Shown here: positions 11,054-61,147 of the stretch, in pieces
Layout of the letters: each line of letters starts with the position of its first letter
Position numbering within the stretch: position 1 is the stretch's first letter
NCBI RefSeq assembly: GCF_905207245.1
Contig: NZ_CAJLKP010000027.1
Coordinates: 171-64,170, forward strand
Direction: 5' to 3'
Source of the DNA: an uncultured Bacteroides sp.
GTDB lineage: Bacteria; Bacteroidota; Bacteroidia; Bacteroidales; Bacteroidaceae
DNA: 64,000 bases
Program-made: the position numbers and the translations under genes
Notes under the pieces: model-generated
Databases searched by the model: none
Told to the model about the DNA's origin: nothing
Seen by the model: the letters and a program-made list of their open reading frames with translations, nothing else

Positions 11054-11061
11054 TTTAAATT

Positions 11062-11151
11062 AAGAATGAAGAATGATGAATGAAGAATTTTGCTACGCTA
11101 TGCAAGTATGCCGCAAAGTAATTCATCATTCTTCATTCATCATTCTTCATT
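11062..11151 (+). repeat. palindromic element A (heptad-word arms plus GC-rich core)
   Basis: Perfect 24-bp stem: 11065-11088 (AATGAAGAATGATGAATGAAGAAT) pairs with 11128-11151. The arms are 7-nt tandem words (AAGAATG AAGAATG ATGAATG AAGAATT). The 39-nt core is TTTGCTACGCTATGCAAGTATGCCGCAAAG. An A9 run follows and abuts the rluA-family ATG. Confidence 0.85.
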
Positions 11152-11159
11152 AAAAAAAA

Positions 11160-11831
11160 ATGACTGTCGTATACGAGGACAATCATATCATTATAGTCAA
11201 CAAGACCGCTTCCGAGATCGTTCAGGGAGACAAGACGGGGGATACGCCGCTTTCGGAAACTGTAAAGCAGTATTTGAAGGAGAAATACCAGAAACCCGGT
11301 AATGTTTTCATCGGTGTTACCCACCGGCTGGACCGCCCCGTGAGCGGTCTTGTTGTATTTGCTAAGACCAGCAAGGCGTTGTCCCGCCTCAATGAAATGT
11401 TCAAGAATAGTGAGGTGAAGAAGACTTACTGGGCTATCGTGAAGAATGCTCCGAAGGAGCTGGAAGGAGAATTGGTGAACTATCTGGTGCGCAATGAGAA
11501 GCAGAACAAGAGCTATGCATATGATAAGGAGGTGCCAAAAAGTAAAAAGGCCATCCTGAACTATCGCCTGATAGGAAAGTCGGAGAATTACTTTCTGCTG
11601 GAAGTGGATTTGAAGACCGGACGGCATCATCAGATACGTTGCCAGTTGGCAAAGATGGGATGTCCTATCAAGGGAGATTTGAAGTATGGCTTTGCCCGCT
11701 CCAATCCGGATGGAAGTATTTGCCTGCATGCACGTCGTATCAGCTTTGTGCATCCGGTGTCTAAAGAAATGATTGAAGTGGAAGCACCTGTACCGCCGAC
11801 GAATCTCTGGCAAGGCTTTCAGATGATATAA
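11160..11831 (+). CDS. RluA-family pseudouridine synthase
   Basis: Catalytic motif HRLDRPVSGLVVFAKT, plus GRHHQIRCQLA. Confidence 0.88.
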   Translation: MTVVYEDNHIIIVNKTASEIVQGDKTGDTPLSETVKQYLKEKYQKPGNVFIGVTHRLDRPVSGLVVFAKTSKALSRLNEMFKNSEVKKTYWAIVKNAPKELEGELVNYLVRNEKQNKSYAYDKEVPKSKKAILNYRLIGKSENYFLLEVDLKTGRHHQIRCQLAKMGCPIKGDLKYGFARSNPDGSICLHARRISFVHPVSKEMIEVEAPVPPTNLWQGFQMI

Positions 11832-11834
11832 GAA

Positions 11835-11910
11835 AGAGCTTATTATAAAATAGAAATGCATCAAAAGGCTGAATAGTTTTTTGACGCATTTCTATTTTAT
11901 AGTAGGCTCT
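11835..11910. terminator. long bidirectional hairpin between convergent genes
   Basis: AGAGCTTATTATAAAATAGAAATGCATCAAAA pairs with TTTTGACGCATTTCTATTTTATAGTAGGCTCT (about 32 bp, 3 mismatches). Loop is GGCTGAATAG. Confidence 0.6.
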
Positions 11911-11912
11911 TA

Positions 11913-13650: not shown

Positions 13651-13780
13651 GTGAATTAAAAATTAAAAATTGAAAATTAAAAAATGATACTGAGATATTG
13701 AAAATTGAGAATTGAGAGGTGATACAACAGCTACACTGCGCAGCTGTTTTTTAATTTTTAATTCTCAATTTTTAATTTAA
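13651..13780 (-). repeat. palindromic element B (AATTnAA heptad words, GC hairpin, conserved 33-nt arm)
   Basis: Fills the 131-bp gap between the ABC ATPase stop and the permease start. Contains heptad runs at 13654-13685 and 13697-13719, the hairpin AACAGCT-acactgcgc-AGCTGTT (13726-13748), and a 33-nt arm at 13747-13779 that is identical to 47869-47901. Confidence 0.8.
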
Positions 13781-14668
13781 TCAGTATTTTCCCGTCAGTC
13801 CGATAAAAGCATCTTCCAGGTTTACAGTCTCGCATTTCAAATCGCTGTAAGGCACTTGCAGGGCTTTGAAACGGGTTTCTACTTCTTGTTGAGGCAGGAA
13901 CGAGAAGGTTTCCAGCGTGTTTCTGATAAGAGACGGATGGTAGAAATCCTTATCTTCCGGCATCTTGTAACCTTCGGGCAACGTGCAGGTATAGCGGCGT
14001 ATCGTGTCCAACAGTTCCTTTACGGGCTGCTGGATGAGGATACGTCCGTAATCCATGATGATGCAGTCGTCTACCAGGCGTTCCATATCCTGAATGATGT
14101 GCGAGGTCAGGAAAACAGTTTTGTTTTCCGAGCGGGCATAGTCACGCAGATAGTCCACGAAGAGGCGGCGGTAGCCGGGGTCCAGACCGAGAGAGAAATC
14201 GTCCAGTACCAGCAATTCCGGGTTTTGCGCCAGGATAAGTCCCAGTGCCACTTGCGAACGTTGTCCGCACGACATACGCGAGATGCGCTGTCCGGGAGCT
14301 ACTTTCAGTTTATCCATCAGGTCGTAGTACGCTTCTTTGCGCCACTGTCCCGGATAGAAAGCAGAATAAAACTTCTCAATCTCCCGGATGGTCATGAACT
14401 GATATTGCACATGTCCCTCGATGAGCAGGCCGATATTACGGCGTGTCGAAGGGTGCATGGTCTGAATGTCCTGTCCGAAGATGGAGCATTGGCCGGAGCG
14501 GGGTTTCAGGTAACCGCTCAATATATTGATCGTTGTGGTTTTTCCTGTACCATTTTTCCCCAGCAGTCCCAGGATGCGCCCTTTAGGCACGCTGAAGCTG
14601 AGGTTTTCGTAAATTAACCGTTTGCCATAATAGTGCGTCAGGTTATTGCATTCAATGATATTCTCCAT
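13781..14668 (-). CDS. ABC transporter ATP-binding protein (ABC-2/NosF-like type)
   Basis: Walker A GKNGTGKTTT, signature MSCGQRSQV, Walker B LLVLDDFSLGLD. Confidence 0.9.
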   Translation of the reverse strand: MENIIECNNLTHYYGKRLIYENLSFSVPKGRILGLLGKNGTGKTTTINILSGYLKPRSGQCSIFGQDIQTMHPSTRRNIGLLIEGHVQYQFMTIREIEKFYSAFYPGQWRKEAYYDLMDKLKVAPGQRISRMSCGQRSQVALGLILAQNPELLVLDDFSLGLDPGYRRLFVDYLRDYARSENKTVFLTSHIIQDMERLVDDCIIMDYGRILIQQPVKELLDTIRRYTCTLPEGYKMPEDKDFYHPSLIRNTLETFSFLPQQEVETRFKALQVPYSDLKCETVNLEDAFIGLTGKY

Positions 14669-14763: not shown

Positions 14764-14896
14764 AATGGTAACTCCATTTACACGCCGTGGTAAAGACCGT
14801 TACATGCCGAGGTAAAGAGCGTTACAATACGTGGTAAAGGTCGTTACATCCTGCGGTAAATGCTTTTACCTCTTGTGGTAAATGCTTGGTAAATGC
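14764..14896. repeat. tandem array of about six 22-bp units (GnGGTAAAGnnCGTTACAnnnn)
   Basis: Units start at 14787, 14809, 14831, 14853 and 14875, with a degenerate unit at 14764. Each has GGTAAA...TTAC(C) dyad symmetry. Unit 14853 carries the perfect arms GGTAAA/TTTACC. Confidence 0.8.
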
Positions 14897-22341: not shown

Positions 22342-22398
22342 AGAGGAACTGATGATAGGCAAGTGGTTGATTATTAGTGAAGTTGGTGAGTGGGGAAA

Positions 22399-22458
22399 GT
22401 GTGGCACAGTGTGGAATTGTGTGGAAAGTGTAGAAACAAGTGTGGAAAAATTCCACAC
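22399..22458. promoter_or_regulatory. candidate enhancer (UAS): GTGTGGAA repeat array with a perfect dyad
   Basis: GTGTGGCA 22399, GTGTGGAA 22409, 22419 and 22440, GTGTAGAA 22428. The dyad GTGTGGAAAAATTCCACAC spans 22440-22458. A further copy lies at 22498-22505. The array is 60-130 bp upstream of the sigma-54 promoter. Confidence 0.45.
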
Positions 22459-22504
22459 TGTGGTGGTCTGCACCATACTAAAGCCGTAGCCAAAGCGTGT
22501 GGAA

Positions 22505-24791: not shown

Positions 24792-24834
24792 ACTGTTGGT
24801 GGAATTAATTCAAGCCGGTACAGAAGAGAAGGAA

Positions 24835-24924
24835 ACAAGGGGACGAGTTGACAAGGGGACAAGGGGCTGCGCAATGCTTCTATACCGCATGGAACCTTGT
24901 TCCCTTGTCAACTCTTCCCCTTGT
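24835..24924 (+). repeat. palindromic element E (octamer-word arms plus GC-rich core)
   Basis: 30-bp stem between 24835-24864 and 24895-24924 (28 Watson-Crick pairs, 1 G:U, 1 mismatch). Arms are built from the words CAAGGGGA and CGAGTTGA. Core is GGCTGCGCAATGCTTCTATACCGCATGG. Confidence 0.85.
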
Positions 24925-24986
24925 CAACTGATTCAAATCCGCTCCGAAAAGTGTTAATTCCGCTAACAAGTAACAATCGCTATTTT

Positions 24987-27577: not shown

Positions 27578-29929
27578 ATGAACAATGTCTCCAAGAAGAA
27601 AATAGCTGCCGGTTATGCTGTCCTGCTGGCAGTTTTGCTTTACTCCCTGTTCTTTGTGCACAGGGAGATGGAGAACCTTATGAGTTCCGACACTAGCGAC
27701 ATCCTGCGTACCGACAGCTTGATAGGTCTTTTGCGGGAGAAAGATGCCAATACCGTCCGCCTACTGCGCACGCTGAGCGAAGCAAACGACAGCATGATTT
27801 CCGCCCGTGAGGTGGAGCAGATAATTGCCGAACAGGATACCATCATTACTCAACAACGTGTGCAGCGTCGTGTTACTGCCCGTCGTGATACAGTTGTGAC
27901 GCAACCCAAGAAGAAGGGCTTCTTCCGCCGTCTGGGCGAAGTCTTCGTGCCACCCAAGAAGGATACTGCCGTGCAGGTACAGACTACCCTTGAAGTGGCC
28001 ACCGATACCATTCTCGATGCCTACAACCCCGTCGATTCCCTGCATGCAAAACTGCGTACTGTTGCCCAACAGAAGAAGGCGACTAATAGCGTGGTGCAAC
28101 GTCGCAAGCGAACCCTGCAACGCCTAGACCATGCACTGACCGCCCGCATCGACAGCCTCTTGAAAGGATATGAACAGGAAACCCTGCTCCGCGCCCGCGA
28201 AGAAGCCGAGTATCAGAAGGCGGTGCGCCATCGTTCAGCAACCATCATTTCGGGTATTGCGGCGGGAGCCGTAGTGTTGTCCGTCATCTTCCTTGTCATG
28301 ATTTGGCGCGACATTACCCGTAGCAACCGCTACCGCCGCCAATTGGAAGAGGCCAACCGCTTCGCCGAGGAACTGCTCGCCTCCCGCGAAAAACTGATGC
28401 TTGCCATCACCCACGACTTCAAAGCCCCTTTAGGCTCCATCATGGGCTATGCCGACCTGCTTTCACGTCTCACTGTAGATGAGCGGCAACGCTTCTACCT
28501 CGATAATATGAAAACCTCCTCGGAACACCTTCTGAAACTGGTTACCGATCTGCTCGACTTCCATCGCCTCGACCTGAAAAAAGCTGAGATTAATCGTGTC
28601 ACTTTCCACCCTTCACGCTTGCTGGAAGAAATCTATGTCAGCTTCGAACCACTGACTTCCGCCAAGGGACTGTCTCTGAAATGCGATATAGCCCCTGAAC
28701 TGAAAGGAACCTTCATCAGTGACCCACTGCGCTTGCGCCAGATTGTCAACAATCTGCTTTCCAATGCTGTGAAGTTCACTTCGGAGGGCAGCATTACACT
28801 GACAGCCTGTTTTGTACCGAAGGATGACCCTGCTTTCTCCGGTAATCACCTGAAGCTCTCTGTCATCGATACAGGCAAGGGTATGGAGGCGGGCGACCGT
28901 GAACGTATCTTTCAGGAATTTACCCGCCTGCCGGGAGCACAGGGCGAAGAAGGGTTCGGACTGGGACTGTCCATCGTCCGCATGTTGGTGCAGTTACTCG
29001 AAGGGCGTATAGATGTGGACAGTGTGCCCGGAAAGGGGAGCACATTTACACTTCGCGTTCCGCTTTATCCGGTGAAGAGGGAGGGGAATGAAGAATTGGG
29101 AATGAAGAATGAAGAATTGGGCTGCGCACCCACGCCGTCAGGTAATTCTTCATTCTTCATTTCTAATTCTTCATCTTTCCATATCCTCATGATTGATGAC
29201 GACCGTATCCAACTCACCCTCACCTCCGCCATGTTGTCGCAAAGCGGCATAACCTCCGTCACTTGCCTGCAATTGGATGAATTGTTGGATGCCTTGCGTA
29301 CCGACACTTTCGATGTGCTGCTTACTGACGTGCAGATGCCTGCAATGAACGGTTTCGACCTGCTGAATCTGTTGCGTGCTTCGAATATTCCGCAGGCAAA
29401 GACCATACCTGTAATTGCCGTCACTGCACGCAGCGACATGCAACGGGATGAATTTCTAAAACACGGCTTCACCGGCTGCCTGCACAAACCGTTCATGGTG
29501 AATGAGTTGCTTGCCGAATTGAAACAGGAAGCCGGGGAACTGAAAGCAACACCTCCAGAAACTGAGTCAATCGCCGATACACCGACACCGGCCGGCACTT
29601 CGACTTTGAATTTTTCCGCCCTCACCGCCTTCTCCGGTGATGATGCCGACGCGGCAAAATCCATTCTGGAAAGTTTCGTCACCGAGACGCGCCTTAACAC
29701 TGACCACCTGCGGCATTCCCTTGAGGCGGAAGACACAGATGGCATCGCAGCTATGGGCCACAAGATGCTCCCCCTCTTTACGCTGTTGGGTGCTGATGAA
29801 CTCGTAATTCTGCTGAAAGCGCTCGAAGCATCGCACGGCGTGCCTTTTAACGAAGAGATAAAAGAAAAGTCACTTTTGGCACTGAGCATTATAGAAGAAG
29901 TGCTGACACAAGCTGTGAAACTCTATTAG
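27578..29929 (+). CDS. hybrid sensor histidine kinase/response regulator with C-terminal HPt domain
   Basis: Two TM segments and coiled-coil regions. HisKA H-box ITHDFKAPL, HATPase (NAVKFT...DTGKGM...GFGLGLSIV), REC (ILMIDDD...LLTDVQMP...HKP), HPt-like (AAMGHKMLPLFTLLGA). Confidence 0.9.
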   Translation: MNNVSKKKIAAGYAVLLAVLLYSLFFVHREMENLMSSDTSDILRTDSLIGLLREKDANTVRLLRTLSEANDSMISAREVEQIIAEQDTIITQQRVQRRVTARRDTVVTQPKKKGFFRRLGEVFVPPKKDTAVQVQTTLEVATDTILDAYNPVDSLHAKLRTVAQQKKATNSVVQRRKRTLQRLDHALTARIDSLLKGYEQETLLRAREEAEYQKAVRHRSATIISGIAAGAVVLSVIFLVMIWRDITRSNRYRRQLEEANRFAEELLASREKLMLAITHDFKAPLGSIMGYADLLSRLTVDERQRFYLDNMKTSSEHLLKLVTDLLDFHRLDLKKAEINRVTFHPSRLLEEIYVSFEPLTSAKGLSLKCDIAPELKGTFISDPLRLRQIVNNLLSNAVKFTSEGSITLTACFVPKDDPAFSGNHLKLSVIDTGKGMEAGDRERIFQEFTRLPGAQGEEGFGLGLSIVRMLVQLLEGRIDVDSVPGKGSTFTLRVPLYPVKREGNEELGMKNEELGCAPTPSGNSSFFISNSSSFHILMIDDDRIQLTLTSAMLSQSGITSVTCLQLDELLDALRTDTFDVLLTDVQMPAMNGFDLLNLLRASNIPQAKTIPVIAVTARSDMQRDEFLKHGFTGCLHKPFMVNELLAELKQEAGELKATPPETESIADTPTPAGTSTLNFSALTAFSGDDADAAKSILESFVTETRLNTDHLRHSLEAEDTDGIAAMGHKMLPLFTLLGADELVILLKALEASHGVPFNEEIKEKSLLALSIIEEVLTQAVKLY
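29085..29177 (+). repeat. palindromic element inside the hybrid kinase ORF
   Basis: 31-bp stem between 29088-29118 and 29144-29174 (29 Watson-Crick pairs plus 2 G:U). Heptad words GAATGAA/GAATTGG. 25-nt core GGGCTGCGCACCCACGCCGTCAGGT. The reading frame stays open across it. Confidence 0.85.
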
Positions 29930-41917: not shown

Positions 41918-43885
41918 ATGATATCAGTAGAAGGACTGAAAGTGGAATTCAACGCCACTCCTTTGTTCGAAGACGTCTCTTACGTTATCAACAAGAAAGA
42001 CCGCATCGCCCTGGTGGGCAAGAATGGTGCGGGCAAATCTACCATGCTTAAGATACTGGCTGGCTTGCAACAGCCCACTTCAGGCGTTGTTGCCGTTCCC
42101 CGCGAATGTACTATTGGCTATCTGCCTCAAGTGATGATTCTCAGCGATGAACACACTGTGATGCAAGAAGCCGAGCTTGCCTTCGAGCACATCTTTGAGA
42201 TGCAGGCAAACATCGAACGCATGAACCGGCAGCTTGCCGAACGCACTGATTATGACAGCGAGGATTATCATAAACTTATCGACCGCTTCACCCACGAGAA
42301 CGAACGCTTCCTGATGATGGGCGGCACTAACTTCCGTGCCGAAATAGAACGAACCCTGCAAGGTCTGGGATTCAGCCGTGAGGACTTCGACCGCTCCACT
42401 AGTGAGTTTTCCGGTGGTTGGCGTATGCGTATCGAATTGGCAAAGCTCCTGCTTCGCCGTCCCGATGTGCTGTTGCTCGATGAGCCTACCAATCACCTTG
42501 ATATTGAGAGTATCCAATGGCTGGAAAACTTCCTCTCTACCCGTGCCAATGCGGTAGTGTTGGTAAGTCACGACCGTGCTTTCCTCAACAACGTTACCAC
42601 ACGCACCATCGAAATCACCTGCGGACAGATTTACGACTACAAAGTGAAGTACGATGAGTTTGTCGTGCTGCGGAAGGAACGCCGTGAGCAGCAACTTCGT
42701 GCCTACGAAAACCAGCAGAAGCAGATAGAAGACACCGAGGCCTTCATCGAACGTTTCCGCTACAAAGCCACCAAAGCCGTGCAGGTGCAAAGCCGCATCA
42801 AGCAACTGGAAAAGATAGACCGCATTGAAGTGGACGAAGAAGATAACTCGGCACTGCGCCTGAAATTTGTTTGCAGCAATCGCAGCGGAAGTTATCCTGT
42901 CATCTGTGAGGATGTGGCCAAAGCCTACGGCGACCACGTCATCTTCCATGATGTGAACCTCACCATCAATCGTGGTGAGAAAGTGGCATTCGTGGGCAAG
43001 AACGGTGAAGGTAAATCTACTCTCGTGAAGTGCATCATGGACGAGATAACCGATTATACCGGAAAGTTGACTTTAGGACATAATGTCCAGATAGGATACT
43101 TTGCCCAGAACCAGGCACAGCTTCTTGATGAAACGCTTACGGTGTTCGATACTATCGACCGTGTGGCAGTGGGGGACATCCGCACCAAGATACGTGATAT
43201 CCTTGGCGCATTCATGTTCGGCGGCGAGGCTTCCGATAAGAAGGTAAAAGTGCTTTCAGGTGGTGAACGTACCCGTTTGGCTATGATTAAGCTCCTGCTG
43301 GAACCCGTGAACTTCCTGATACTGGACGAACCGACCAACCATCTGGATATGCGCTCGAAGGATGTGTTGAAAGATGCTATCCGCGAATTTGACGGTACGG
43401 TGATATTAGTCAGCCACGACCGTGACTTCCTTGACGGACTTGCGACTAAAGTATATGAGTTCGGTGGTGGCGTTGTGAAAGAACATCTTGGCGGCATCTA
43501 CGATTTCCTACAGAAAAAGCAGATAGAAAGCCTGAATGAATTACAGAAATCACCGACACTTTCAGCTTCCCCTTCCAACGGAAAAGAAAGTGCCGATAAG
43601 GATGTGGCAGCGCAGCCTTCCGGCGCAAAACTCTCTTACGAAGAGCAAAAGGAACTGAATAAAAAACTCAAGAAGCTGGAACGCCGTGTTGCCGACTGTG
43701 AAGAGGAGATAGAACAGACTGAATCCGCCATCGCCATTCTCGAAGCCAAAATGGCAACTCCCGAAGGCGCTTCGGATATGACACTCTACGAACAGCATCA
43801 GAAGTTGAAACAACAACTCGACTCCGTGATGGAAGAGTGGGACACCGCCTCTACCGAACTGGAAGAAGCGCGTGGTAACCAATGA
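41918..43885 (+). CDS. ABC-F family ATPase (translation-factor type, no TMD)
   Basis: Two ABC cassettes (GKNGAGKST and GKNGEGKST; LSGGWRMR and LSGGERTR) with an inter-domain linker and a C-terminal coiled coil. Confidence 0.9.
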   Translation: MISVEGLKVEFNATPLFEDVSYVINKKDRIALVGKNGAGKSTMLKILAGLQQPTSGVVAVPRECTIGYLPQVMILSDEHTVMQEAELAFEHIFEMQANIERMNRQLAERTDYDSEDYHKLIDRFTHENERFLMMGGTNFRAEIERTLQGLGFSREDFDRSTSEFSGGWRMRIELAKLLLRRPDVLLLDEPTNHLDIESIQWLENFLSTRANAVVLVSHDRAFLNNVTTRTIEITCGQIYDYKVKYDEFVVLRKERREQQLRAYENQQKQIEDTEAFIERFRYKATKAVQVQSRIKQLEKIDRIEVDEEDNSALRLKFVCSNRSGSYPVICEDVAKAYGDHVIFHDVNLTINRGEKVAFVGKNGEGKSTLVKCIMDEITDYTGKLTLGHNVQIGYFAQNQAQLLDETLTVFDTIDRVAVGDIRTKIRDILGAFMFGGEASDKKVKVLSGGERTRLAMIKLLLEPVNFLILDEPTNHLDMRSKDVLKDAIREFDGTVILVSHDRDFLDGLATKVYEFGGGVVKEHLGGIYDFLQKKQIESLNELQKSPTLSASPSNGKESADKDVAAQPSGAKLSYEEQKELNKKLKKLERRVADCEEEIEQTESAIAILEAKMATPEGASDMTLYEQHQKLKQQLDSVMEEWDTASTELEEARGNQ

Positions 43886-43914
43886 CATGTATCAACCAAT
43901 TTAATAATACAAGA

Positions 43915-45951
43915 ATGAGATTTACCAAGTATTTACCTTTCGCTGCAATTTGCCTCATGATGGCGGGATGCGGCACCGGCAAGCAGAAGGCTGAATTGAC
44001 AGCCGGCATCAAACTTGCCAATCTTGACACGACTGCCCTTCCGGGAAGCAGTTTCTATCAGTACGCCTGTGGCGGTTGGATTGAAAGCCATCCACTTTCG
44101 GCTGAGTATTCGCAATATGGTTCTTTCACCGAACTTGCCGAGAACAACCGCAAACAGATACAAGGTCTGATTGAGGAACTTGCCGCCACCCAGCATGAAG
44201 CCGGTAGTGTGGCTCAAAAAGTGGGCGACCTTTATAAAATTGCTATGGACAGCGTGAAGTTGAACCAGGAAGGTGTTGCCCCTATCAAAGCCGACCTGGA
44301 ACAAATAGCCGCTCTAAAGGATAAAAAAGATGTCTATGCCCTATTGGCCAACTTGCGCAAGCAAGGCATCGGCGCTTACCTCGGAATGTATGTTGCTGCC
44401 GATGAAATGAACAGTAACGAGAATGCCGTACAAACTTATCAAAGTGGTTTGAGTATGGGCGAACGTGACTATTATCTGGCTACAGACCCTTCTACTACTG
44501 CTATCCGCGATGCTTTCCGCACTCATGTGCAGAAGATGTATCAGTTGGCAGGCTTCGATGAGGCTACTGCCAAGAAAGGCATGGAAGTAGTGATGGACGT
44601 AGAAACCCGTCTTGCCAAGGCTTTCCGCTCTCGCACCGAACTGCGCGACCCGCATGCCAACTACAACAAGATGAGCATGGAAGAAATAAAGAAGAATTAT
44701 CCCACTTTCAACTGGGATGCTTATCTGTCAGAGCTTGGCTTGAAGGACGTAAAAGAAATCATCGTAGGTCAGCCTGCCTCTGTGGCTGAGGCAGCCAAGA
44801 TTCTGGATACATTACCTGTTGACCAGCAATCTCTCTACCTGCAATGGAAACTGATTGATGCTGCCGCCAACTACCTGAATGACGAGATAGCTCAACAAAA
44901 CTTCGACTTCTACGACCGCACTATGTCCGGAACACAGGAGATGCAGCCTCGTTGGAAGACCGCTGTTTCTGTTGTCAGCTCTGCACTGGGTGAAGCTGTG
45001 GGACAGATGTATGTAGAGAAATATTTCCCTGCTGCTGCCAAGGAACGTATGGTTACTCTGGTGAAGAATCTTCAGACGAGCTTGGGCGAGCGAATTAACA
45101 ACCTGCCTTGGATGAGTGATGAAACCAAACAGAAAGCACAGGAAAAACTGGCCACCTTCCACGTGAAGATTGGCTATCCTGACAAGTGGAAAGACTACTC
45201 TACACTGGAAATCAAAGACGACTCATACTGGAATAACATAAAGCGTGCTAACTTATGGAGCTATGCCGAAATGGTTGCAAAAGCTGGCAAACCGGTGGAC
45301 AAAGACGAATGGCTGATGACCCCGCAAACCGTAAACGCTTATTACAATCCGACAACGAACGAAATCTGTTTCCCTGCCGGTATCCTGCAATATCCGTTCT
45401 TCGATATGGAAGCTGACGATGCCTTCAACTACGGTGCTATCGGTGTGGTAATCGGTCACGAAATGACACATGGATTCGACGACCAGGGACGCCAGTACGA
45501 TAAAGACGGTAACCTGAAAGACTGGTGGACGGAAGAAGATGCCAAGAACTTTGAGAAACGTGCCGACGTGATGGTTGCTTTCTTCGACAGCATCGAAGTG
45601 GCTCCGGGCGTACATGCCAACGGGCGTATGACATTGGGTGAGAACATTGCCGACCATGGAGGCCTGCAGGTTTCTTTCCAAGCGTTCAAGAAAGCTACGG
45701 CTGCTGCTCCGCTGGAAGTGAAAGACGGTTTCACTCCCGAACAACGCTTCTTCCTGGCTTATGCCAACGTTTGGGCCAACAACACCCGCCCCGAAGCTAT
45801 CCTGCAATTGACGAAGGTGGATGTACACTCTTTGGGCAAATGGCGTGTAGACGCTGCATTGCCGCACATCGCAGCATGGAATGAGGCATTCGGTATTACT
45901 GAAAAAGATCCAATGTTCGTACCGGTGGAAGAACGCGTCTCTATCTGGTAA
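43915..45951 (+). CDS. M13-family metalloendopeptidase (PepO/neprilysin-like) lipoprotein
   Basis: Start moved to MRFTKYLPFAAICLMMAGC. Zinc motif HEMTHGFD, ENIADHGG, C-terminal ...ERVSIW. Confidence 0.9.
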   Translation: MRFTKYLPFAAICLMMAGCGTGKQKAELTAGIKLANLDTTALPGSSFYQYACGGWIESHPLSAEYSQYGSFTELAENNRKQIQGLIEELAATQHEAGSVAQKVGDLYKIAMDSVKLNQEGVAPIKADLEQIAALKDKKDVYALLANLRKQGIGAYLGMYVAADEMNSNENAVQTYQSGLSMGERDYYLATDPSTTAIRDAFRTHVQKMYQLAGFDEATAKKGMEVVMDVETRLAKAFRSRTELRDPHANYNKMSMEEIKKNYPTFNWDAYLSELGLKDVKEIIVGQPASVAEAAKILDTLPVDQQSLYLQWKLIDAAANYLNDEIAQQNFDFYDRTMSGTQEMQPRWKTAVSVVSSALGEAVGQMYVEKYFPAAAKERMVTLVKNLQTSLGERINNLPWMSDETKQKAQEKLATFHVKIGYPDKWKDYSTLEIKDDSYWNNIKRANLWSYAEMVAKAGKPVDKDEWLMTPQTVNAYYNPTTNEICFPAGILQYPFFDMEADDAFNYGAIGVVIGHEMTHGFDDQGRQYDKDGNLKDWWTEEDAKNFEKRADVMVAFFDSIEVAPGVHANGRMTLGENIADHGGLQVSFQAFKKATAAAPLEVKDGFTPEQRFFLAYANVWANNTRPEAILQLTKVDVHSLGKWRVDAALPHIAAWNEAFGITEKDPMFVPVEERVSIW

Positions 45952-45964
45952 TTACTGCCACCAC

Positions 45965-46096
45965 GTTGGCAAGACTTTGCCACCGTGATGGCAAAACTTT
46001 GCCACCGTGATGGCAAAACTTTGCCACTATGATGGCAAGACTTTGCCAATGCGATGGCAAAACTTTGCCACTACGATGGCAAAAATGCTCTGATAA
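45965..46096. repeat. tandem array of 22-bp units with dyad TGGCAAA-AC-TTTGCCA
   Basis: Five full units start at 45965, 45987, 46009, 46031 and 46053. A degenerate sixth starts at 46075. Variation is confined to an A/G position and the 4-5 nt linker. Confidence 0.9.
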
Positions 46097-46228: not shown

Positions 46229-46236
46229 TACCTTTG
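46229..46236 (+). promoter_or_regulatory. -7 promoter box TACCTTTG
   Basis: TAnnTTTG match 27 nt upstream of the purH ATG at 46264. Confidence 0.5.
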
Positions 46237-46263
46237 CGCATCAAATCGTTAATACGCAAATCC

Positions 46264-47787
46264 ATGTCTGAAACAAAAAAAATTAAAACCGCTCTGGTAT
46301 CGGTTTATCATAAGGAAGGTTTGGACGAAATAATTACCAAACTGCATGAAGAAGGAGTAGAGTTTCTGTCAACCGGCGGAACTCGTCAGTTTATAGAATC
46401 GCTGGGCTATCCCTGCAAGGCAGTGGAAGACCTGACAACTTATCCCTCTATCCTGGGAGGACGTGTGAAAACCTTGCACCCGAAGGTATTCGGTGGTATT
46501 CTTTGCCGTCGCGGACTGGAACAGGATATGCAACAGATTGAAAAATATGAAATTCCCGAAATAGACCTTGTAATCGTCGACCTGTATCCGTTTGAAGCTA
46601 CCGTGGCTTCCGGTGCCGACGAAGCATCTATCATCGAGAAGATTGACATAGGCGGCATCTCCCTGATACGTGCTGCTGCCAAAAACTTTAATGATGTAGT
46701 GATTATTGCTTCTCAGGCTCAATACCAGCCGTTCCGCGACATGCTGATGGAACACGGAGCTACTACCTCTATCGAAGAGCGCCGTTGGTTCGCCAAAGAG
46801 GCATTTGCTGTTTCTTCTCACTATGACTCGGCCATTTTCAACTACTTCGATGGTGAAGAAGGTTCGGCATTCCGTTGCTCTGCCAACAATCAGAAGACTT
46901 TGCGCTATGGGGAAAACCCGCACCAGAAGGGGTACTTCTATGGAAATCTGGAAGGAATGTTCGACCAGATTCATGGGAAAGAGATTTCTTACAATAACCT
47001 GCTCGATATCAACGCTGCCGTTGACTTGATAGACGAATTTGAAGATATAACTTTTGCCGTATTGAAGCATAACAATGCCTGTGGTCTGGCTTCGCGCCCC
47101 ACGGTGCTCGAAGCATGGAACGATGCATTGGCAGGCGACCCGGTATCTGCTTTCGGTGGTGTGCTCATCACGAACGGTGTGATTGACAAGGAAGCTGCCG
47201 AGGAAATCAACAAGATTTTCTTTGAAGTAATTATCGCTCCCGACTACGATGTGGATGCACTGGAAATACTGGGACAGAAAAAGAACCGTATCATTCTGGT
47301 TCGCAAGCCGACTACGTTGCCGAAGAAACAGTTCCGCTCATTGCTGAACGGCGTACTGGTTCAGGACCGTGACCTGAACATCGAACAGCCGGAAGATTTG
47401 AAGACAGTAACCACCAAAGCTCCTACCGCACAGGAAATAGAAGATATGCTCTTTGCAAATAAGATTGTAAAGAACAGCAAGTCCAATGCCATCGTACTGG
47501 CAAAAGGCAAACAATTGCTGGCAAGCGGTGTAGGACAGACTTCACGTGTGGATGCTTTGAAGCAAGCTATTGAAAAAGCCAAGAACTTTGGTTTCGACCT
47601 GAAAGGTGCCGTGATGGCATCCGACGCTTTCTTCCCCTTCCCCGACTGTGTGGAAATTGCCGGAGGCGAAGGTGTGACTGCTGTTATCCAGCCGGGTGGC
47701 TCGATTAAAGACCAACTCTCGTTCGACTATTGCAATGAACATGGCATCGCAATGGTGACTACGGGAATCCGTCATTTTAAACACTAA
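46264..47787 (+). CDS. purH: bifunctional AICAR transformylase / IMP cyclohydrolase
   Basis: Start moved to MSETKKIKTALVSVYHKEG. MGS-like domain followed by an AICARFT domain (LRYGENPHQ, LKHNNACG, GGSIKD). Confidence 0.93.
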   Translation: MSETKKIKTALVSVYHKEGLDEIITKLHEEGVEFLSTGGTRQFIESLGYPCKAVEDLTTYPSILGGRVKTLHPKVFGGILCRRGLEQDMQQIEKYEIPEIDLVIVDLYPFEATVASGADEASIIEKIDIGGISLIRAAAKNFNDVVIIASQAQYQPFRDMLMEHGATTSIEERRWFAKEAFAVSSHYDSAIFNYFDGEEGSAFRCSANNQKTLRYGENPHQKGYFYGNLEGMFDQIHGKEISYNNLLDINAAVDLIDEFEDITFAVLKHNNACGLASRPTVLEAWNDALAGDPVSAFGGVLITNGVIDKEAAEEINKIFFEVIIAPDYDVDALEILGQKKNRIILVRKPTTLPKKQFRSLLNGVLVQDRDLNIEQPEDLKTVTTKAPTAQEIEDMLFANKIVKNSKSNAIVLAKGKQLLASGVGQTSRVDALKQAIEKAKNFGFDLKGAVMASDAFFPFPDCVEIAGGEGVTAVIQPGGSIKDQLSFDYCNEHGIAMVTTGIRHFKH

Positions 47788-47789
47788 TT

Positions 47790-47901
47790 AAATTGAGAAT
47801 TGAGAATTGAAAATTGAGAAATAATATCTTCTCTCACTTTTAATTCTCAGTTCCTAATATGAGTGATATTTTTTAATTTTTAATTCTCAATTTTTAATTT
47901 A
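47790..47901 (+). repeat. palindromic element C (AATTGAG heptad arm / U-rich arm)
   Basis: 32-bp helix between 47790-47821 and 47869-47900 (27 Watson-Crick pairs plus 5 G:U, no other mismatch). The 3' arm ends 2 nt before the mreB ATG. Confidence 0.85.
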
Positions 47902-47902
47902 C

Positions 47903-48925
47903 ATGGGATTATTCTCTTTTACGCAAGAAATAGCGATGGACCTTGGTACCGCCAATACCATTATCACAACCAATGGCAAGATTGTGGTGGATGAGCCTTC
48001 GGTGGTAGCTCTCGACCGTCGTACCGATAAGATGATTGCCGTGGGTGACAAGGCAAAGATGATGCATGAAAAGACCCACGAAAACATACGTACCATCCGT
48101 CCGCTCCGCGACGGTGTAATTGCCGACTTCTATGCTTGTGAGCAAATGATACGCGGTCTGATAAAGATGGTGAATAACCGTAGCCGTCTGTTCTCTCCTT
48201 CGCTTCGTATGGTAATCGGTGTCCCTTCAGGTAGTACGGAAGTGGAATTGCGTGCCGTACGCGACTCTGCCGAGCATGCCGGTGGTCGTGACGTTTACCT
48301 GATTTTCGAACCTATGGCTGCCGCTATCGGTATCGGTATCGACGTGGAAGCTCCGGAAGGAAACATGATTGTAGACATAGGTGGTGGTTCTACTGAAATC
48401 GCCGTTATCTCTTTGGGTGGTATCGTAGCCAATAACTCTATCCGCATTGCCGGTGATGACTTGACTGCTGACATTCAGGAGTACATGAGCCGCCAGCACA
48501 ATGTGAAAGTCAGCGAGCGTATGGCTGAACGTATTAAGATCAATGTAGGTGCTGCCCTGACCGAACTTGGAGAGGATGCTCCGGAAGATTATATTGTTCA
48601 CGGACCGAACCGTATCACGGCCCTGCCTATGGAAGTGCCCGTATGCTATCAGGAAGTGGCACACTGTCTGGAGAAATCAATCTCCAAGATTGAAACTGCT
48701 ATCTTGAATGCGCTGGAAAATACACCTCCCGAATTGTATGCCGATATCGTGCACAACGGTATTTATCTGGCAGGTGGTGGTGCATTGCTCCGCGGACTCG
48801 ATAAGCGTTTGACAGATAAGATAAACATTCCGTTCCATATTGCCGAAGACCCCTTGCATGCCGTTGCTAAAGGTACAGGTGTTGCATTGAAGAATGTGGA
48901 TCGTTTCTCATTCCTTATGCGGTAA
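47903..48925 (+). CDS. mreB: rod-shape-determining actin homolog MreB
   Basis: IAMDLGTANT, DIGGGSTEIAVISLGG, GIYLAGGGALLRGLD. Confidence 0.95.
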   Translation: MGLFSFTQEIAMDLGTANTIITTNGKIVVDEPSVVALDRRTDKMIAVGDKAKMMHEKTHENIRTIRPLRDGVIADFYACEQMIRGLIKMVNNRSRLFSPSLRMVIGVPSGSTEVELRAVRDSAEHAGGRDVYLIFEPMAAAIGIGIDVEAPEGNMIVDIGGGSTEIAVISLGGIVANNSIRIAGDDLTADIQEYMSRQHNVKVSERMAERIKINVGAALTELGEDAPEDYIVHGPNRITALPMEVPVCYQEVAHCLEKSISKIETAILNALENTPPELYADIVHNGIYLAGGGALLRGLDKRLTDKINIPFHIAEDPLHAVAKGTGVALKNVDRFSFLMR

Positions 48926-48934
48926 TAAAAGGAT

Positions 48935-49777
48935 ATGCGAAATTTACTGAACTTTCTTGTTAAATACAACTACTGGTTCCTCTTTCTATTGTTAGAGGCA
49001 GCCAGTTTTGTTTTATTATTCCGCTTCAATTACTATCAGCAGAGCGTGTTTTTTACTTCTGCCAATAGCGTGGCGGGGAAAGTTTATGATATTTCGGGAG
49101 CTATCACTTCTTATTTCCACCTGAAAACAACCAATGAAGACCTGCTGGACCGCAACATGTGGCTGGAACAACGGGTGGCATTCCTTGAAAAGACACTGAA
49201 AAACAACGGAATGGACTCTGTCAGGCTGTATAGCCTGGAACGGCTCGAACCGGAAGAATATCAGATATTCAAGGCGAATGTGATTAAGAATAGCTTGAAC
49301 CGGCTGGATAACTATATCACTCTTGACGAGGGAACCAGTGCAGGTATCCGTCCGGAAATGGGTGTGGTAGATGCCAATGGAGTGGTAGGTATTGTTTATA
49401 AGACTTCTCAGCATTATTCTACCGTCATTCCGTTGCTGAACAGTAAATCGAGTATTAGTTGTAAGATTGTGGGCAGTGACTATTTCGGCTATTTGAAGTG
49501 GGAATATGGAGATTCCCGTTTCGCTTATTTGAAGGATTTGCCCCGTCATGCCGAGTTCAACCTGGGCGATACGGTTGTGACAAGCGGTTACTCTACGGTA
49601 TTTCCCGCAGGAGTCTTAGTGGGCACGGTGGATGATATGTCCGACTCGCACGACGGCCTTTCTTATCTATTAAAGATAAAACTGGCTACGGATTTCGGAA
49701 AAGTGAGCAATGTGCGTGTAATTGCCCGTACAGGACAGGAAGAGCAGAAAGCGTTGGAGAAGGAAGAGGAAAAGTGA
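48935..49777 (+). CDS. mreC: rod-shape-determining protein MreC
   Basis: 280 aa with an N-terminal TM, a coiled coil and C-terminal beta domains (GDTVVTSGYSTVFPAGVLVG). Follows mreB. Confidence 0.88.
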   Translation: MRNLLNFLVKYNYWFLFLLLEAASFVLLFRFNYYQQSVFFTSANSVAGKVYDISGAITSYFHLKTTNEDLLDRNMWLEQRVAFLEKTLKNNGMDSVRLYSLERLEPEEYQIFKANVIKNSLNRLDNYITLDEGTSAGIRPEMGVVDANGVVGIVYKTSQHYSTVIPLLNSKSSISCKIVGSDYFGYLKWEYGDSRFAYLKDLPRHAEFNLGDTVVTSGYSTVFPAGVLVGTVDDMSDSHDGLSYLLKIKLATDFGKVSNVRVIARTGQEEQKALEKEEEK

Positions 49778-49890
49778 TAGAGTGATGAGATGATAAAGTG
49801 ATAGGGCGAAAAGTGATAGAATGAAAAATGATAAGAGAATAAACTCCCCTTCATTTTTTAATTTTTAATTTTCAATTTTTAATTTAATAA
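49778..49890 (+). repeat. element D: GTGATAG-word run plus an unpaired copy of the conserved U-rich arm
   Basis: GTGATAG/GTGATGA/ATGATAA words span 49773-49835. The arm at 49854-49886 is 32/33 identical to 47869-47901. No complementary partner arm was found. Confidence 0.7.
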
Positions 49891-49892
49891 GT

Positions 49893-50393
49893 GTGGTCAT
49901 CAATTATCTGCATAAATTAGGTTGGTTTATTGGTTTGGTGCTATTGCAGGTGCTGATACTGAACAATGTGCATATTGCCGGATATGCCACTCCTTTTCTA
50001 TATATCTATCTCATACTGAAGTTCGAGTCGGAAACGCCGAGAAATGCCTTAATGCTATGGGCGTTCTTCCTGGGACTGACAGTGGACATTTTCTCGGATA
50101 CGCCGGGCATGAATGCGGCGGCTACGGTAGCGCTGGCATTCTTGCGGCCTACTTTCCTGCGATTGTTTGTGCCGCGAGATACATTAGAGAACATCGTTCC
50201 TTCGATAAAGTCGATGGGAATTGCTCCCTTTCTGAAATATTTGGTTGTCAGTGTTTTTGTTCATCATGCAATATTACTTACCATAGAATTCTTTTCGTTC
50301 GCCCACATCGGAACGTTGCTACTGAGAATTGTGGCAAGTGCGTTGCTGACTATAACCTGCATAATGGCTATAGAAGGAGTGAGGAAAAAGTAA
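49893..50393 (+). CDS. mreD: rod-shape-determining protein MreD (GTG start as given by the ORF track)
   Basis: 166 aa with 5 hydrophobic segments. Lies between mreC and the PBP2 gene. Confidence 0.72.
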   Translation: MVINYLHKLGWFIGLVLLQVLILNNVHIAGYATPFLYIYLILKFESETPRNALMLWAFFLGLTVDIFSDTPGMNAAATVALAFLRPTFLRLFVPRDTLENIVPSIKSMGIAPFLKYLVVSVFVHHAILLTIEFFSFAHIGTLLLRIVASALLTITCIMAIEGVRKK

Positions 50394-53707: not shown

Positions 53708-54181
53708 TTTAATTCCTATGTCATTGATGCCGGGAAGTACTTCGTCCGGTAGCAGGTGTGTGATTTTAAAGCGGTATTCTCCGACTTTTCCAATGCGAAT
53801 AAGTCCTGCGGAGAGTGTCGATTGATATAATCCGCCCCAACCGTCACCCAGCCAGATGCCTGCACTGTCGGCAAGTTTCAGTTCTAATGTATCCCTTTTG
53901 ATGTTCTGGGCTTCCGGGCTGTCGTAATAAATAAGAAGAGGCAGGTTCTGATAAGGATAATTGTTTCGGTTTCTGACTTCTACGGATACGTTGTAGAGCG
54001 TAGCGGAGTCCGGAACCATCACATTGAAGAATAGTGTATCTTTCCTCTGCCACCCTTCCGTTGGCAGAGATTGAAAGGTATGATATACCGTCTGTTCGTC
54101 GCAAGCCATGCAGAGGCTTGCGGCAAACAGTAGTATCAAACTCTTTTGGAGAAACGTCTTATGCTTGAGCTGGCTTTTCAT
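53696..54181 (-). CDS. GldH-like lipoprotein
   Basis: Start moved to MKSQLKHKTFLQKSLILLFAASLCMAC (lipobox). About 160 aa. The sequence (VYHTFQSLPTEGWQRKDTLFF...RNRNNYPYQNLPLLI) and its position after a PSP1 gene match my memory of the GldH family. Confidence 0.55.
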   Translation of the reverse strand: MKSQLKHKTFLQKSLILLFAASLCMACDEQTVYHTFQSLPTEGWQRKDTLFFNVMVPDSATLYNVSVEVRNRNNYPYQNLPLLIYYDSPEAQNIKRDTLELKLADSAGIWLGDGWGGLYQSTLSAGLIRIGKVGEYRFKITHLLPDEVLPGINDIGIKLKR

Positions 54182-60149: not shown

Positions 60150-61067
60150 ATGCCATTAAATTTACCTGATAAGCTGCCGGCGATAGAGTTGCTGAAAGAA
60201 GAGAATATATTTGTCATTGACAACTCGCGCGCCACGCAACAGGACATCCGTCCGTTGCGCATCGTTATCCTGAACTTGATGCCTTTGAAGATTACCACGG
60301 AGACAGACCTTGTGCGTTTGCTCTCCAATACACCGCTTCAGGTGGAAATCTCGTTCATGAAAATCAAGAGTCATACATCGAAGAATACGCCTGTTGAACA
60401 TATGCAGACGTTCTATACTGACTTTGAGAAGATGCGTGGCGAGAAGTACGACGGTATGATTATCACCGGTGCCCCGGTAGAGCAACTGGATTTTGAAGAA
60501 GTGACTTACTGGGATGAGATTATGGAAATCTTTGATTGGGCGCGTACGCACGTCACATCTACCCTTTATATATGCTGGGCGGCACAGGCCGGACTCTATC
60601 ATCATTATGGAGTGCCTAAGTATGCCTTGGATAAGAAGATGTTCGGCATTTTCGAACATCGTCCGTTGCAGCCGCTGCATGCCATTTTCCGCGGCTTCGA
60701 TGATGTGTTCTATGTTCCACATAGCCGCCATACGGAAGTGCGGAAAGAAGATATCCTGAAAGTGCCGGAACTAACTTTGCTCTCTGAATCGGAAGAGGCA
60801 GGCGTGCATCTTGTTGTGGCACGTGGTGGGCGTGAGTTCTTTGTGACCGGGCATTCGGAGTACTCTCCGTTGACACTGGATACAGAATACCGCAGAGATT
60901 TAGGCAAAGGACTGCCTATTGAAGTGCCTCGTAATTATTATGTGGATAATGATTTGGACAAAGGTGTGATGGTACGTTGGCGTGCCCATGCCAATTTACT
61001 GTTTTCCAATTGGCTGAACTACTTCGTATATCAGGAAACTCCGTATAATATCAACGATATAAAGTAG
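60150..61067 (+). CDS. metA: homoserine O-acyltransferase (MetA family)
   Basis: [23 protein letters not shown]-terminus, [14 protein letters not shown] (active-site Cys region). Confidence 0.9.
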
Positions 61068-61147
61068 TTACAAGCTACGAGCTACGAGTGACAAGACTTT
61101 GCGGTCATAGCATAGCACTCGTAGCTCGTAGCCTGTAACTTGTAACT
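61067..61147 (+). repeat. palindromic element F (GCTACGA heptad arms)
   Basis: 24-bp stem between 61067-61090 and 61116-61139 (1 A:C mismatch). Words are GTTACAA GCTACGA GCTACGA GTGACAA, with an extra TTGTAAC word at the 3' end. The 25-nt core resembles the reverse complement of the element A core (ACTTTGCGG...CATAGC). Confidence 0.85.

Follow-up and report, generated by a model that had tools for sequence, protein, structure and literature searches.

Short palindromic repeats of Bacteroides that combine a recurrent GC-rich apical core with changeable arms of tandem words

Element A is a long hairpin in the gap between a fabG-like and an rluA-like gene of an uncultured Bacteroides sp. (NCBI RefSeq assembly GCF_905207245.1, contig NZ_CAJLKP010000027.1, positions 171 to 64,170 of the forward strand; this stretch of 64,000 nt is the window, and coordinates are counted from its first letter). 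Its arms consist of short tandem words and its tip of a GC-rich core, and the question raised by the locus is why such a core should recur on other hairpins of the same DNA whose arms are built from different words. An earlier note, made from the letters of the window alone, had proposed a functional core surrounded by arms generated or homogenised locally. Element A belongs, as one of many copies, to a superfamily of non-autonomous palindromic repeats that are short (~90-130 bp) and occur across Bacteroides, the unit being a long hairpin, AT-rich for the most part, with arms of 7-9-nt tandem words and a GC-rich core at the tip. Complete units, core and arms alike, have spread as copies to numerous sites downstream of genes, tiny intercistronic gaps included. 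Once inserted, the arms change fast: whole words are gained or lost, substitutions are compensated, the centre is deleted or the word type is exchanged. The core stays recognisable across sub-families with unrelated arms, and its orientation can flip.

Element A (11054-11155) contained an inverted repeat (11065-11088 and 11128-11151) with 24-nt arms of 100% complementarity, the perfect 24-bp stem already read by the earlier note; in an alternative register the arms were 36 nt long, with 86% complementarity and a 30-nt loop. The left arm (11054-11088, unstranded) was made of AATGAAG/AATGATG words in 7-nt periodicity and included the perfect part at 11065-11088. The core, TTTGCTACGCTATGCAAGTATGCCGCAAAGT (11089-11119, + strand), was of the A-type described below and had A in its first block (block 1) where the family has G. 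The right arm (11120-11155, unstranded) included the perfect part at 11128-11151, after which came A8 and the rluA-like start codon at 11160. Folded as RNA, element A reached -39.2 kcal/mol (z = -9.8), and 0/200 dinucleotide shuffles folded equally well; the z of the other elements named by the note was between -5.6 and -9.7 against dinucleotide shuffles. The open reading frame (ORF) upstream had an adh_short domain (FabG-like) and the ORF downstream a PseudoU_synth_2 domain (RluA-like). The RluA-like protein was 97% identical to its B. intestinalis counterpart, and the host is a near relative of that species within Bacteroides.

The distance from fabG stop to rluA start was 8-15 nt in most of 33 Bacteroidales, and element A was found in four contigs of the host species, all identical, and, with one core substitution, in B. 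intestinalis. With the gap empty in most relatives, element A was inserted there and did not grow in place. The same gap held unrelated tandem-word hairpins in L012, L028, L031, L043, L045, L068, L075 and L076, the words including GAATTAT, GACGCAG, TGATAAT, TTGAAGGA, GTGGTTA and TTTTGGG. Occupancy of the gap (9/80 genomes) was about the number predicted from the density of such elements (~1 per 9 kb in the window), so that a hot spot at fabG-rluA is unnecessary.

A scan of the 64 kb for long inverted repeats whose arms had 7-8-nt periodicity found seven hairpins, namely A, B, E, K, F, one at 47789-47901 and a degenerate one at 49773-49885. Element E had a left arm of ACAAGGGG/ACGAGTTG 8-nt words (24835-24864) and a right arm (24895-24924) 93% complementary to it, both unstranded, and between them the core GGCTGCGCAATGCTTCTATACCGCATGGAA (24865-24894, + strand), which is E-type, two 11-nt half-blocks separated by 6 nt. 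Element K (29088-29174, + strand) had GAATGAA/GAATTGG arms (29088-29118 and 29144-29174) around the core GGGCTGCGCACCCACGCCGTCAGGT (29119-29143). Element F (61066-61140, - strand) had arms of AGCTACG/AGTTACA 7-nt words (61066-61090 and 61116-61140), and its core (61091-61115) stood in reverse orientation, the reverse complement reading CTATGCTATGACCGCAAAGTCTTGT. Element B (13654-13777, - strand) was a composite hairpin with AATTAAA/AATTGAG arms between two minus-strand genes and carried a block-1-like mini-hairpin (13728-13746), CAGCTGCGCAGTGTAGCTG on the minus strand.

The cores of these elements were compared by shuffle tests on local alignment scores. Cores A and E, which the note had put at about 20 of 29 identical positions, agreed at 19/29 in this genome and at 20/29 with the B. 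intestinalis orthologue (G instead of A), in the same orientation (p = 0.001), and the match of core A to element F in reverse orientation was confirmed (p = 0.0003). The pairs E-K (p = 0.007) and E-B (p = 0.03) were also significant; A-B, A-K and K-F were not individually so. The proposed likeness of core A to the first 10 nt of K was right as to kinship and too narrow as to extent, the relation spanning the whole core (GGCTGCGC...GCCG..AGGTAATTC, aligned by eye, 5 nt shorter mid-core). The A-E score was reached by ~8 in 10,000 random 30-mers of the window, a rate that makes two matches among five other hairpin loops unlikely by chance. Two further matches to core A within the window, at 53976 and at 50136, were in coding DNA and were rejected as chance.

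The core pattern GCTGCGCNATGCNNNNATNCCGCA was scanned against public metagenome contigs, where at least 119 stretches matched. Among the matches listed, all those in AT-rich context with complete flanks lay inside arm-bearing hairpins (87/87), no solo core stood outside a hairpin in such context, and flank clustering gave ~47 distinct loci. Core-pattern matches in GC-rich contigs were in coding DNA and were rejected as chance. Three arm types carried the scan pattern: GAATGAA 7-mers (A-type), GTTGAC/AAGGGRAC 8-mers (E-type) and CAATGTGC/CAATATGC 8-mers. Core variants also occurred in hairpins of the same contigs that had not been selected by the pattern, with arms of AGCTACG/AGTTACA 7-mers (as in F), AATTAAA 7-mers, GGATTACRC and GACGCGGAT 9-mers, and GGTGATAA 8-mers. 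Block 1 (GGCTGCGCWAT) was found with at least nine word types (GAATGAA, GTTGAC/AAGGGRAC, CAATGTGC, AGCTACG, GGATTACRC, GACGCGGAT, GGTGATAA, GAGAGTT and AATTAAA), so that a conserved core on unrelated arms, as first proposed for the window, holds well beyond it. Of the periodic-arm hairpins that the pattern had not selected, 42 were distinct; they came partly from contigs chosen for holding a core elsewhere, and 14 of them had GCTGCGC or its complement in the loop, with 0.28 expected (Poisson P ~1e-19). Several families were present on one contig (L280, L199, L237), as they are in the window.

In this sample the core was found in Bacteroides and in one uncultured Bacteroidales genome, L045 (RluA 75% identical). 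It was not found in the tandem-word hairpins of Paludibacter, Parabacteroides, Prevotellaceae and Dysgonomonadaceae, the relatives compared. The tandem-word hairpin as such is a wider Bacteroidales trait, much more widespread than the GC-rich core. A copy in B. thetaiotaomicron (at about 2,514,221), with TTGAGAG arms (TTGAGAGTTGGCTGCGCTGTG...), lies in a transcribed region between coding sequences (supplement of PMC7366714). A plasmid collection held no core match, and a stricter core pattern had no match in viral contigs. Two unverified 'Bacteriophage sp.' records of a phage collection, L286 (MT838846.1) and L287 (MT837774.1), had GAATMAA-word hairpins with genes of host type nearby; one record encoded an HU-like protein and an amidase, and the other the RNase P RNA. 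Both resemble pieces of a Bacteroides chromosome and not phage genomes, and a microvirus link was rejected.

In a core-anchored alignment, A-type copies at unrelated loci had the same arms and termini (AAATGATAATTTAATGAAG ... CTTCATTTCGATAAATTATCATTT; ends AAATGATAATTTA / TAAATTATCATTT), and so had E-type copies among themselves (GGGAAAGAAAGGAAGGAAACCAGTTGAC ... GTCAACTTTCCCTCAAAACC; ends GGGAAAG... / ...CTTTCCC). The outer-stem register differed between the two types. The A-type core had T at the W position, an AAGY centre and a WGGTAATT end, and the E-type core had A at the W position, a TYCT centre and a TGGAA end. Since core variants track arm type, and termini are common within a sub-family, whole units have been copied to new sites. 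The idea of copy-specific, locally generated arms was contradicted by these many dispersed copies, and the description of the repeats as the reverse of repetitive extragenic palindromes (REP) and miniature inverted-repeat transposable elements (MITE) applies between sub-families only; inside any one sub-family the arms show the conservation of an ordinary MITE. No direct repeat of at least 2 nt flanked ten A-type copies, where a palindromic target-site duplication of 1-2 nt could escape; that none was seen fits copying through single-stranded DNA (HUH-type) better than DDE copying.

The core consensus was GGCTGCGCWATG-N4-YATGCCGCAWGG, GC-rich and 25-30 nt long, and its common form, GGCTGCGCWAT + 6 nt + ATGCCGCAWGG, consisted of two inverted 11-nt half-blocks (A, C and E types). 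Block 1 was always directly beside an arm, in all types. The core could fold into a mini-hairpin with a conserved C.C mismatch (UGCG / C.C mismatch / WAUG / 4-nt loop / YAUG / CGCA). This fold was compatible with 94.8% of pair cells and had no compensatory double changes, so that the modelled structure is allowed and not proven. No canonical Bacteroides promoter (TTTG ... TAnnTTTG) was seen in the core by eye. E-type units were often enclosed by an outer inverted repeat, GTTGGCGGAATTAATT / AATTAATYCCGCCAAC (e.g., L185, L201, L250, L252; some copies lacked it), the two together forming a layered palindrome of ~200 bp. In element E the halves of this repeat, as read from the sequence and unstranded, were GTTGGTGGAATTAA (24795-24808) and its pairing partner TTAATTCCGCTAAC (24954-24967).

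Comparison of orthologous loci, which for intergenic regions was one of the checks put forward with the original proposal, showed insertion of the element as well as word indels, compensated changes and replacement in the arms. Copies at the same locus in L251 and L202 differed in the arm by exactly one 8-nt word. A change of CAAGGGG to CCAGGGG on one arm was compensated by CCCCTTG to CCCCTGG on the other. The B locus in B. intestinalis had AATTATG arms and a different loop within the same flanks. The kinase linker in which element K sits held GAGAGTT arms and a core with block 1 duplicated in L281, only a relic after central deletion in L285, the closest relative, and GAATGAA arms in more distant relatives, a pattern for which gradual drift alone is insufficient. 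The 8-nt indel, the compensated change and the passage from GAATGAA to GAGAGTT bore out that part of the proposal in which arms are remodelled locally with their complementarity kept.

The core itself was inverted between some orthologous loci. The 30-nt core was flipped in L251 vs L202 and in L228 vs L264, with arms and flanks unchanged, and at the kinase locus it was flipped between K of the window and the isolate genome L282. In L282 the inverted core had also diverged, so that this case is not an assembler flip of one sequence. Opposite orientations reflect either loops that flip by recombination between arms or, for the metagenome pairs only, mis-orientation by the assembler.

Element K was the only copy that was not extragenic. 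It lay in frame in a hybrid histidine-kinase ORF (27578-29929), where it supplied 29 codons of the linker between the HATPase_c domain (residues 382-497) and the receiver domain (536-648) and encoded the peptide ...NEELGMKNEELGCAPTPSGNSSFFISNSSSF.... Among orthologues in other species, some had the same version as K and others an inverted or decayed one or one with different arms, and the peptide or the inverted peptide was recognisable in homologues from other species.

The account of these results that is favoured here, with slightly better than even confidence when taken as a package, is that of a REP/MITE-like superfamily with whole-unit copying, fast-changing arms and a loop core that serves as the recognition site of a trans-acting protein. 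Its descriptive part is close to certain; its recognition-site part is tentative and is held at clearly less than even confidence. Recognition by such a protein would be what constrains the core, and the likeliest candidate for the protein would be the enzyme that copies the element. AT-rich and near-perfect arms would ease the extrusion of a hairpin or cruciform and could thereby place the core, single-stranded or as a mini-hairpin, at the tip. The sequence of the arms would be free provided that they stay complementary, and complementarity may be kept by hairpin-templated (quasipalindrome) correction or template switching, by selection, or by both, with word slippage in addition. Template switching within quasipalindromes is a known bacterial mutational process, and a conserved mismatch in a paired element is typical of folded-DNA sites read by HUH/Y1 enzymes or integrases. 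Transcribed stems of 24-35 bp would probably act as elements of RNA processing or stability too, as a by-product which would not explain the conservation of the core. A bolder extension is that the repeats are a new class of mobile or selfish palindromes, with a recognised module in an apical loop on extruded arms, a flipping loop that works as a two-state DNA switch and an enzyme new to Bacteroides repeats; it is considered doubtful.

Several observations weigh against the favoured account. Tandem-word hairpins without core existed in the window (47789-47901) and in other Bacteroidales, so the core is not required for such hairpins. The spacing of the half-blocks varied (6 nt; 1 nt in K, L282 and L232; 14 nt in L199 and L280), some loops had block 1 without block 2, and the core alignment contained no compensatory double changes in the mini-hairpin. 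Two of the three core inversions rest on metagenome assemblies, in which assemblers could mis-orient loops between perfect inverted repeats, and ORF calls on metagenome contigs were crude. No RAYT-like (REP-associated tyrosine transposase) ORF, sought as YI..NP + [ND]H.H, was present in the ~2.9 Mb of fetched loci, a sample in which a gene present once per genome would seldom be included. No enzyme gene recurred beside the elements and no transposase recurred among the neighbours, the recurring neighbour genes being of common Bacteroides families only (glycoside hydrolase, hybrid two-component sensor, amidase). The only published RAYT-associated REP of Bacteroides, that of B. xylanisolvens, reads CAGCGGATT-TAT-AATCCGCTG (supplement of PMC6006769); this pattern was unlike the core and was absent from the fetched loci.

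The conservation might instead act at the RNA level, where the stem would terminate transcription, be cut by RNase III or stabilise the 3' end, and the loop would be bound by an RNA-binding protein or pair with another RNA. The 24-35-bp stems have high stability as RNA (z -5.6 to -9.8), and Neisseria Correia elements are known to be cut by RNase III once transcribed. The hairpins of the window mostly fill co-directional gene gaps or follow a gene, and among 29 scorable loci 20 were between tandem ORFs, 8 convergent and 1 divergent; divergent regions made up 27% of the intergenic length on the same contigs, and copies were depleted from these promoter regions (p = 0.001 by length, 0.055 by count). 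The B. thetaiotaomicron copy between coding sequences was in a transcribed region (PMC7366714). However, a specific loop RNA would need one orientation, and in the tandem loci the core was sense in 12 and antisense in 8, besides being inverted between orthologous loci. Folding energy likewise had no sense-strand advantage (sense better in 11, worse in 9), and the two ratios together make a specific loop RNA unlikely as the conserved entity. An intrinsic terminator was rejected, as the stems were long and AT-rich, had no consistent T-run after them and were not reported by a terminator scan. One copy (K) is translated as protein. Rfam 15 reported only a tRNA in the scan at gathering score, and at E <= 5 the hairpins matched only eukaryotic microRNA precursor models, far below threshold, so that no Rfam family matches the repeats. 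An RNA-level role as the cause of the conservation is considered unlikely on these grounds.

A second alternative needs no function, the repeats being neutral palindromes of recent common ancestry whose arms diverge by slippage and whose core changes at the ordinary mutation rate. Slippage of whole words was directly seen, the AT-rich 7-mers of the window copies form a one-step chain (AATTAAA, AATTGAA, AATTGAG, AATTAAG, AATGAAG, AATGATG), and the core helix lacked covariation, all of which speak for neutrality. Against it stand the occurrence of the same core on arms of 8- and 9-nt words without detectable relation to the 7-mers, its presence in the distant Bacteroidales genome L045, its survival of an entire arm replacement at one locus and the position of block 1 directly beside the arm in all types. 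Neutrality is accordingly judged improbable.

Slightly more improbable still is that the core is a separate unit, such as a tyrosine recombinase site, which landed in the loops of tandem-word hairpins. The arrangement of 11 + 6 + 11 nt with inverted half-blocks in A, C and E types would suit such a site, the same arm words also occurred in hairpins without core or with short loops, both core orientations occurred within the same arms, and E-type units are themselves nested in an outer inverted repeat. Proviruses of Bacteroidales microviruses have been reported to use dif-like sites (PMC3091885). Against nesting, core variants track arm type, so that arms and core are inherited together within families, no solo core outside a hairpin was among the matches listed, and the phage-collection matches were host-like and not microviruses. 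A dif/Xer site was rejected in spite of the 11-6-11 layout, as spacings of 1 and 14 nt, intolerable for a duplex recombinase site, also occur; the predicted dif of B. fragilis, ATTTCGTATAAATTAGTTTATGTCATAT (supplement of PMC3025954), was unlike the core. An integron attC site (RYYYAAC ... GTTRRRY boxes) was likewise rejected, the outer repeat of E reading GTTGG...CTAAC, which is the opposite arrangement, and A, K and F having no boxes. Finally, chance similarity among GC-rich hairpin loops has practically no probability left: A-K, A-B and K-F were not significant and random coding 30-mers, such as that at 53976, reach similar scores, but A-E and A-F were significant, loops of unselected hairpins were enriched in the core motif to P ~1e-19 and 87/87 AT-context matches (among the matches listed) lay in hairpins.

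The hairpins of the window that lack a core were both unstranded. That at 47789-47901 had AATTGAG arm words and no GC-rich core, between ORFs 46234-47787 and 47903-48925, and the degenerate tandem-word hairpin at 49773-49885 had AGTGATA-type words on the left, TTTTTAA on the right and no core, between ORFs 48935-49777 and 49893-50393. Both of these, as well as A, B and F, occupied nearly the whole spacer between co-directional ORFs, beginning at the stop codon and leaving only a few bases ahead of the next start; E lay between tandem genes and K within a gene. Arm words were common to several copies, A and K sharing the GAATGAA type, and B, 47789-47901 and 49773-49885 being grouped as AATTGAG/AATTAAA-type.

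Other repeats of the window had different layouts. A probable bidirectional terminator, a 33-bp hairpin with 91% complementarity and no word periodicity (11834-11911), lay between the convergent rluA-like and DUF4857 ORFs; B. intestinalis keeps a shorter form of it (L001 3689-3738). At 45956-46084, between ORFs 43882-45951 and 46234-47787, 22-bp units stood six in tandem, each formed by a small palindrome (TTGCCA-N6-TGGCAA) with AACT after it; from their sequence they look like binding sites of a dimeric regulator two helical turns apart. A second 22-bp array (14778-14896), with about five tandem units TTACAnnnCGTGGTAAAGnnCG, lay upstream of the minus-strand ABC-transporter ORF 13781-14668. 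A run of 9-10-nt GTGTGGAAA-type words at 22389-22462, ending in a 14-bp perfect hairpin (CACAGTGTGGAATT / AATTCCACACTGTG), is possibly a further tandem-word element that is laid out differently.

Bacteroides is well studied, yet its small intergenic repeats are barely described. The present repeats are likely to influence the expression of operons and the processing of RNA. Assemblers can place their loops in the wrong orientation, and the repeats would surface as candidates in searches for invertible DNA that are based on inverted repeats. As abundant and fast-evolving sequences they are also markers for the distinction of strains. The conserved loop with turnover of the stem, opposite to an ordinary REP or MITE, makes them a natural system for the maintenance of palindromes through slippage and hairpin-templated correction, and the question of a core-binding factor becomes directly testable.

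Neither tandem-word arms nor the common core had a description in the full-text literature searched, which, together with the Rfam 15 result, agrees with the first impression of an undescribed architecture. REP, BIME and REPIN-RAYT systems resemble the present repeats in being multi-copy extragenic palindromes after genes (here ~47 core loci among the matches listed) with no target-site duplication seen, in having an imperfect palindrome that is short and GC-rich (in the present case the core) and in a mosaic nested build like that of BIMEs. BIME-1/RIP units, moreover, have a protein-binding motif between inverted repeats. In REP and REPIN, however, the stem is conserved and the loop or spacer variable, whereas here the tip is conserved and the stems differ between sub-families. 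The core starts with GGCTGCGC and has no GT[AG]G or CGTC foot in the alignments, which does not exclude RAYT subclass 2.6 of Bacteroidetes, whose REPs were reported without GTAG and with 'atypical secondary structures' (PMC6006769). The REP of B. xylanisolvens is unrelated in sequence, and no RAYT gene was found beside any copy in the fetched loci. As in DDE-derived MITEs, terminal inverted repeats are conserved within the A-type and within the E-type; a target-site duplication of fixed length, which such MITEs have, was not seen at the ten A-type copies. Censuses have counted tens of thousands of MITEs in Bacteroidota with their architecture undescribed (PMC11602168). Copies of the present repeats may thus already be catalogued among these anonymous elements.

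Correia/NEMIS elements of Neisseria and ERIC of enterobacteria are intergenic, co-transcribed palindromes of 100-150 bp with sub-families that differ internally, and some Correia elements have a central IHF site. The present repeats are likewise palindromic and intergenic and fall into sub-families, and have no sequence similarity to either. In Correia elements the 26-bp terminal inverted repeats are conserved, a TA duplication is present and tandem-word arms are absent, and their common part is the terminal repeats and not the centre. Rickettsia palindromic elements can sit in frame in genes and be translated, and are longer and without tandem-word arms; in-frame residence is shared by K, and the phylum is different and no sequence is common. 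Origin hairpins of rolling-circle replicons and CRESS-DNA viruses carry a conserved loop nonamer on variable stems, and are single-copy origins beside a Rep gene. The present repeats share with them the conserved loop on a variable stem, and differ in having tens of copies per genome and no linked Rep gene. The pneumococcal BOX (PMC3049150) is also a modular small repeat with variable internal tandem units and complementary ends, but in it the tandem module, boxB (45 nt), occupies the centre and takes no part in the stem, and BOX has no conserved loop core. The repeats belong to none of the families tested, and the conserved loop on stems that vary between sub-families sets them apart from all the systems compared.

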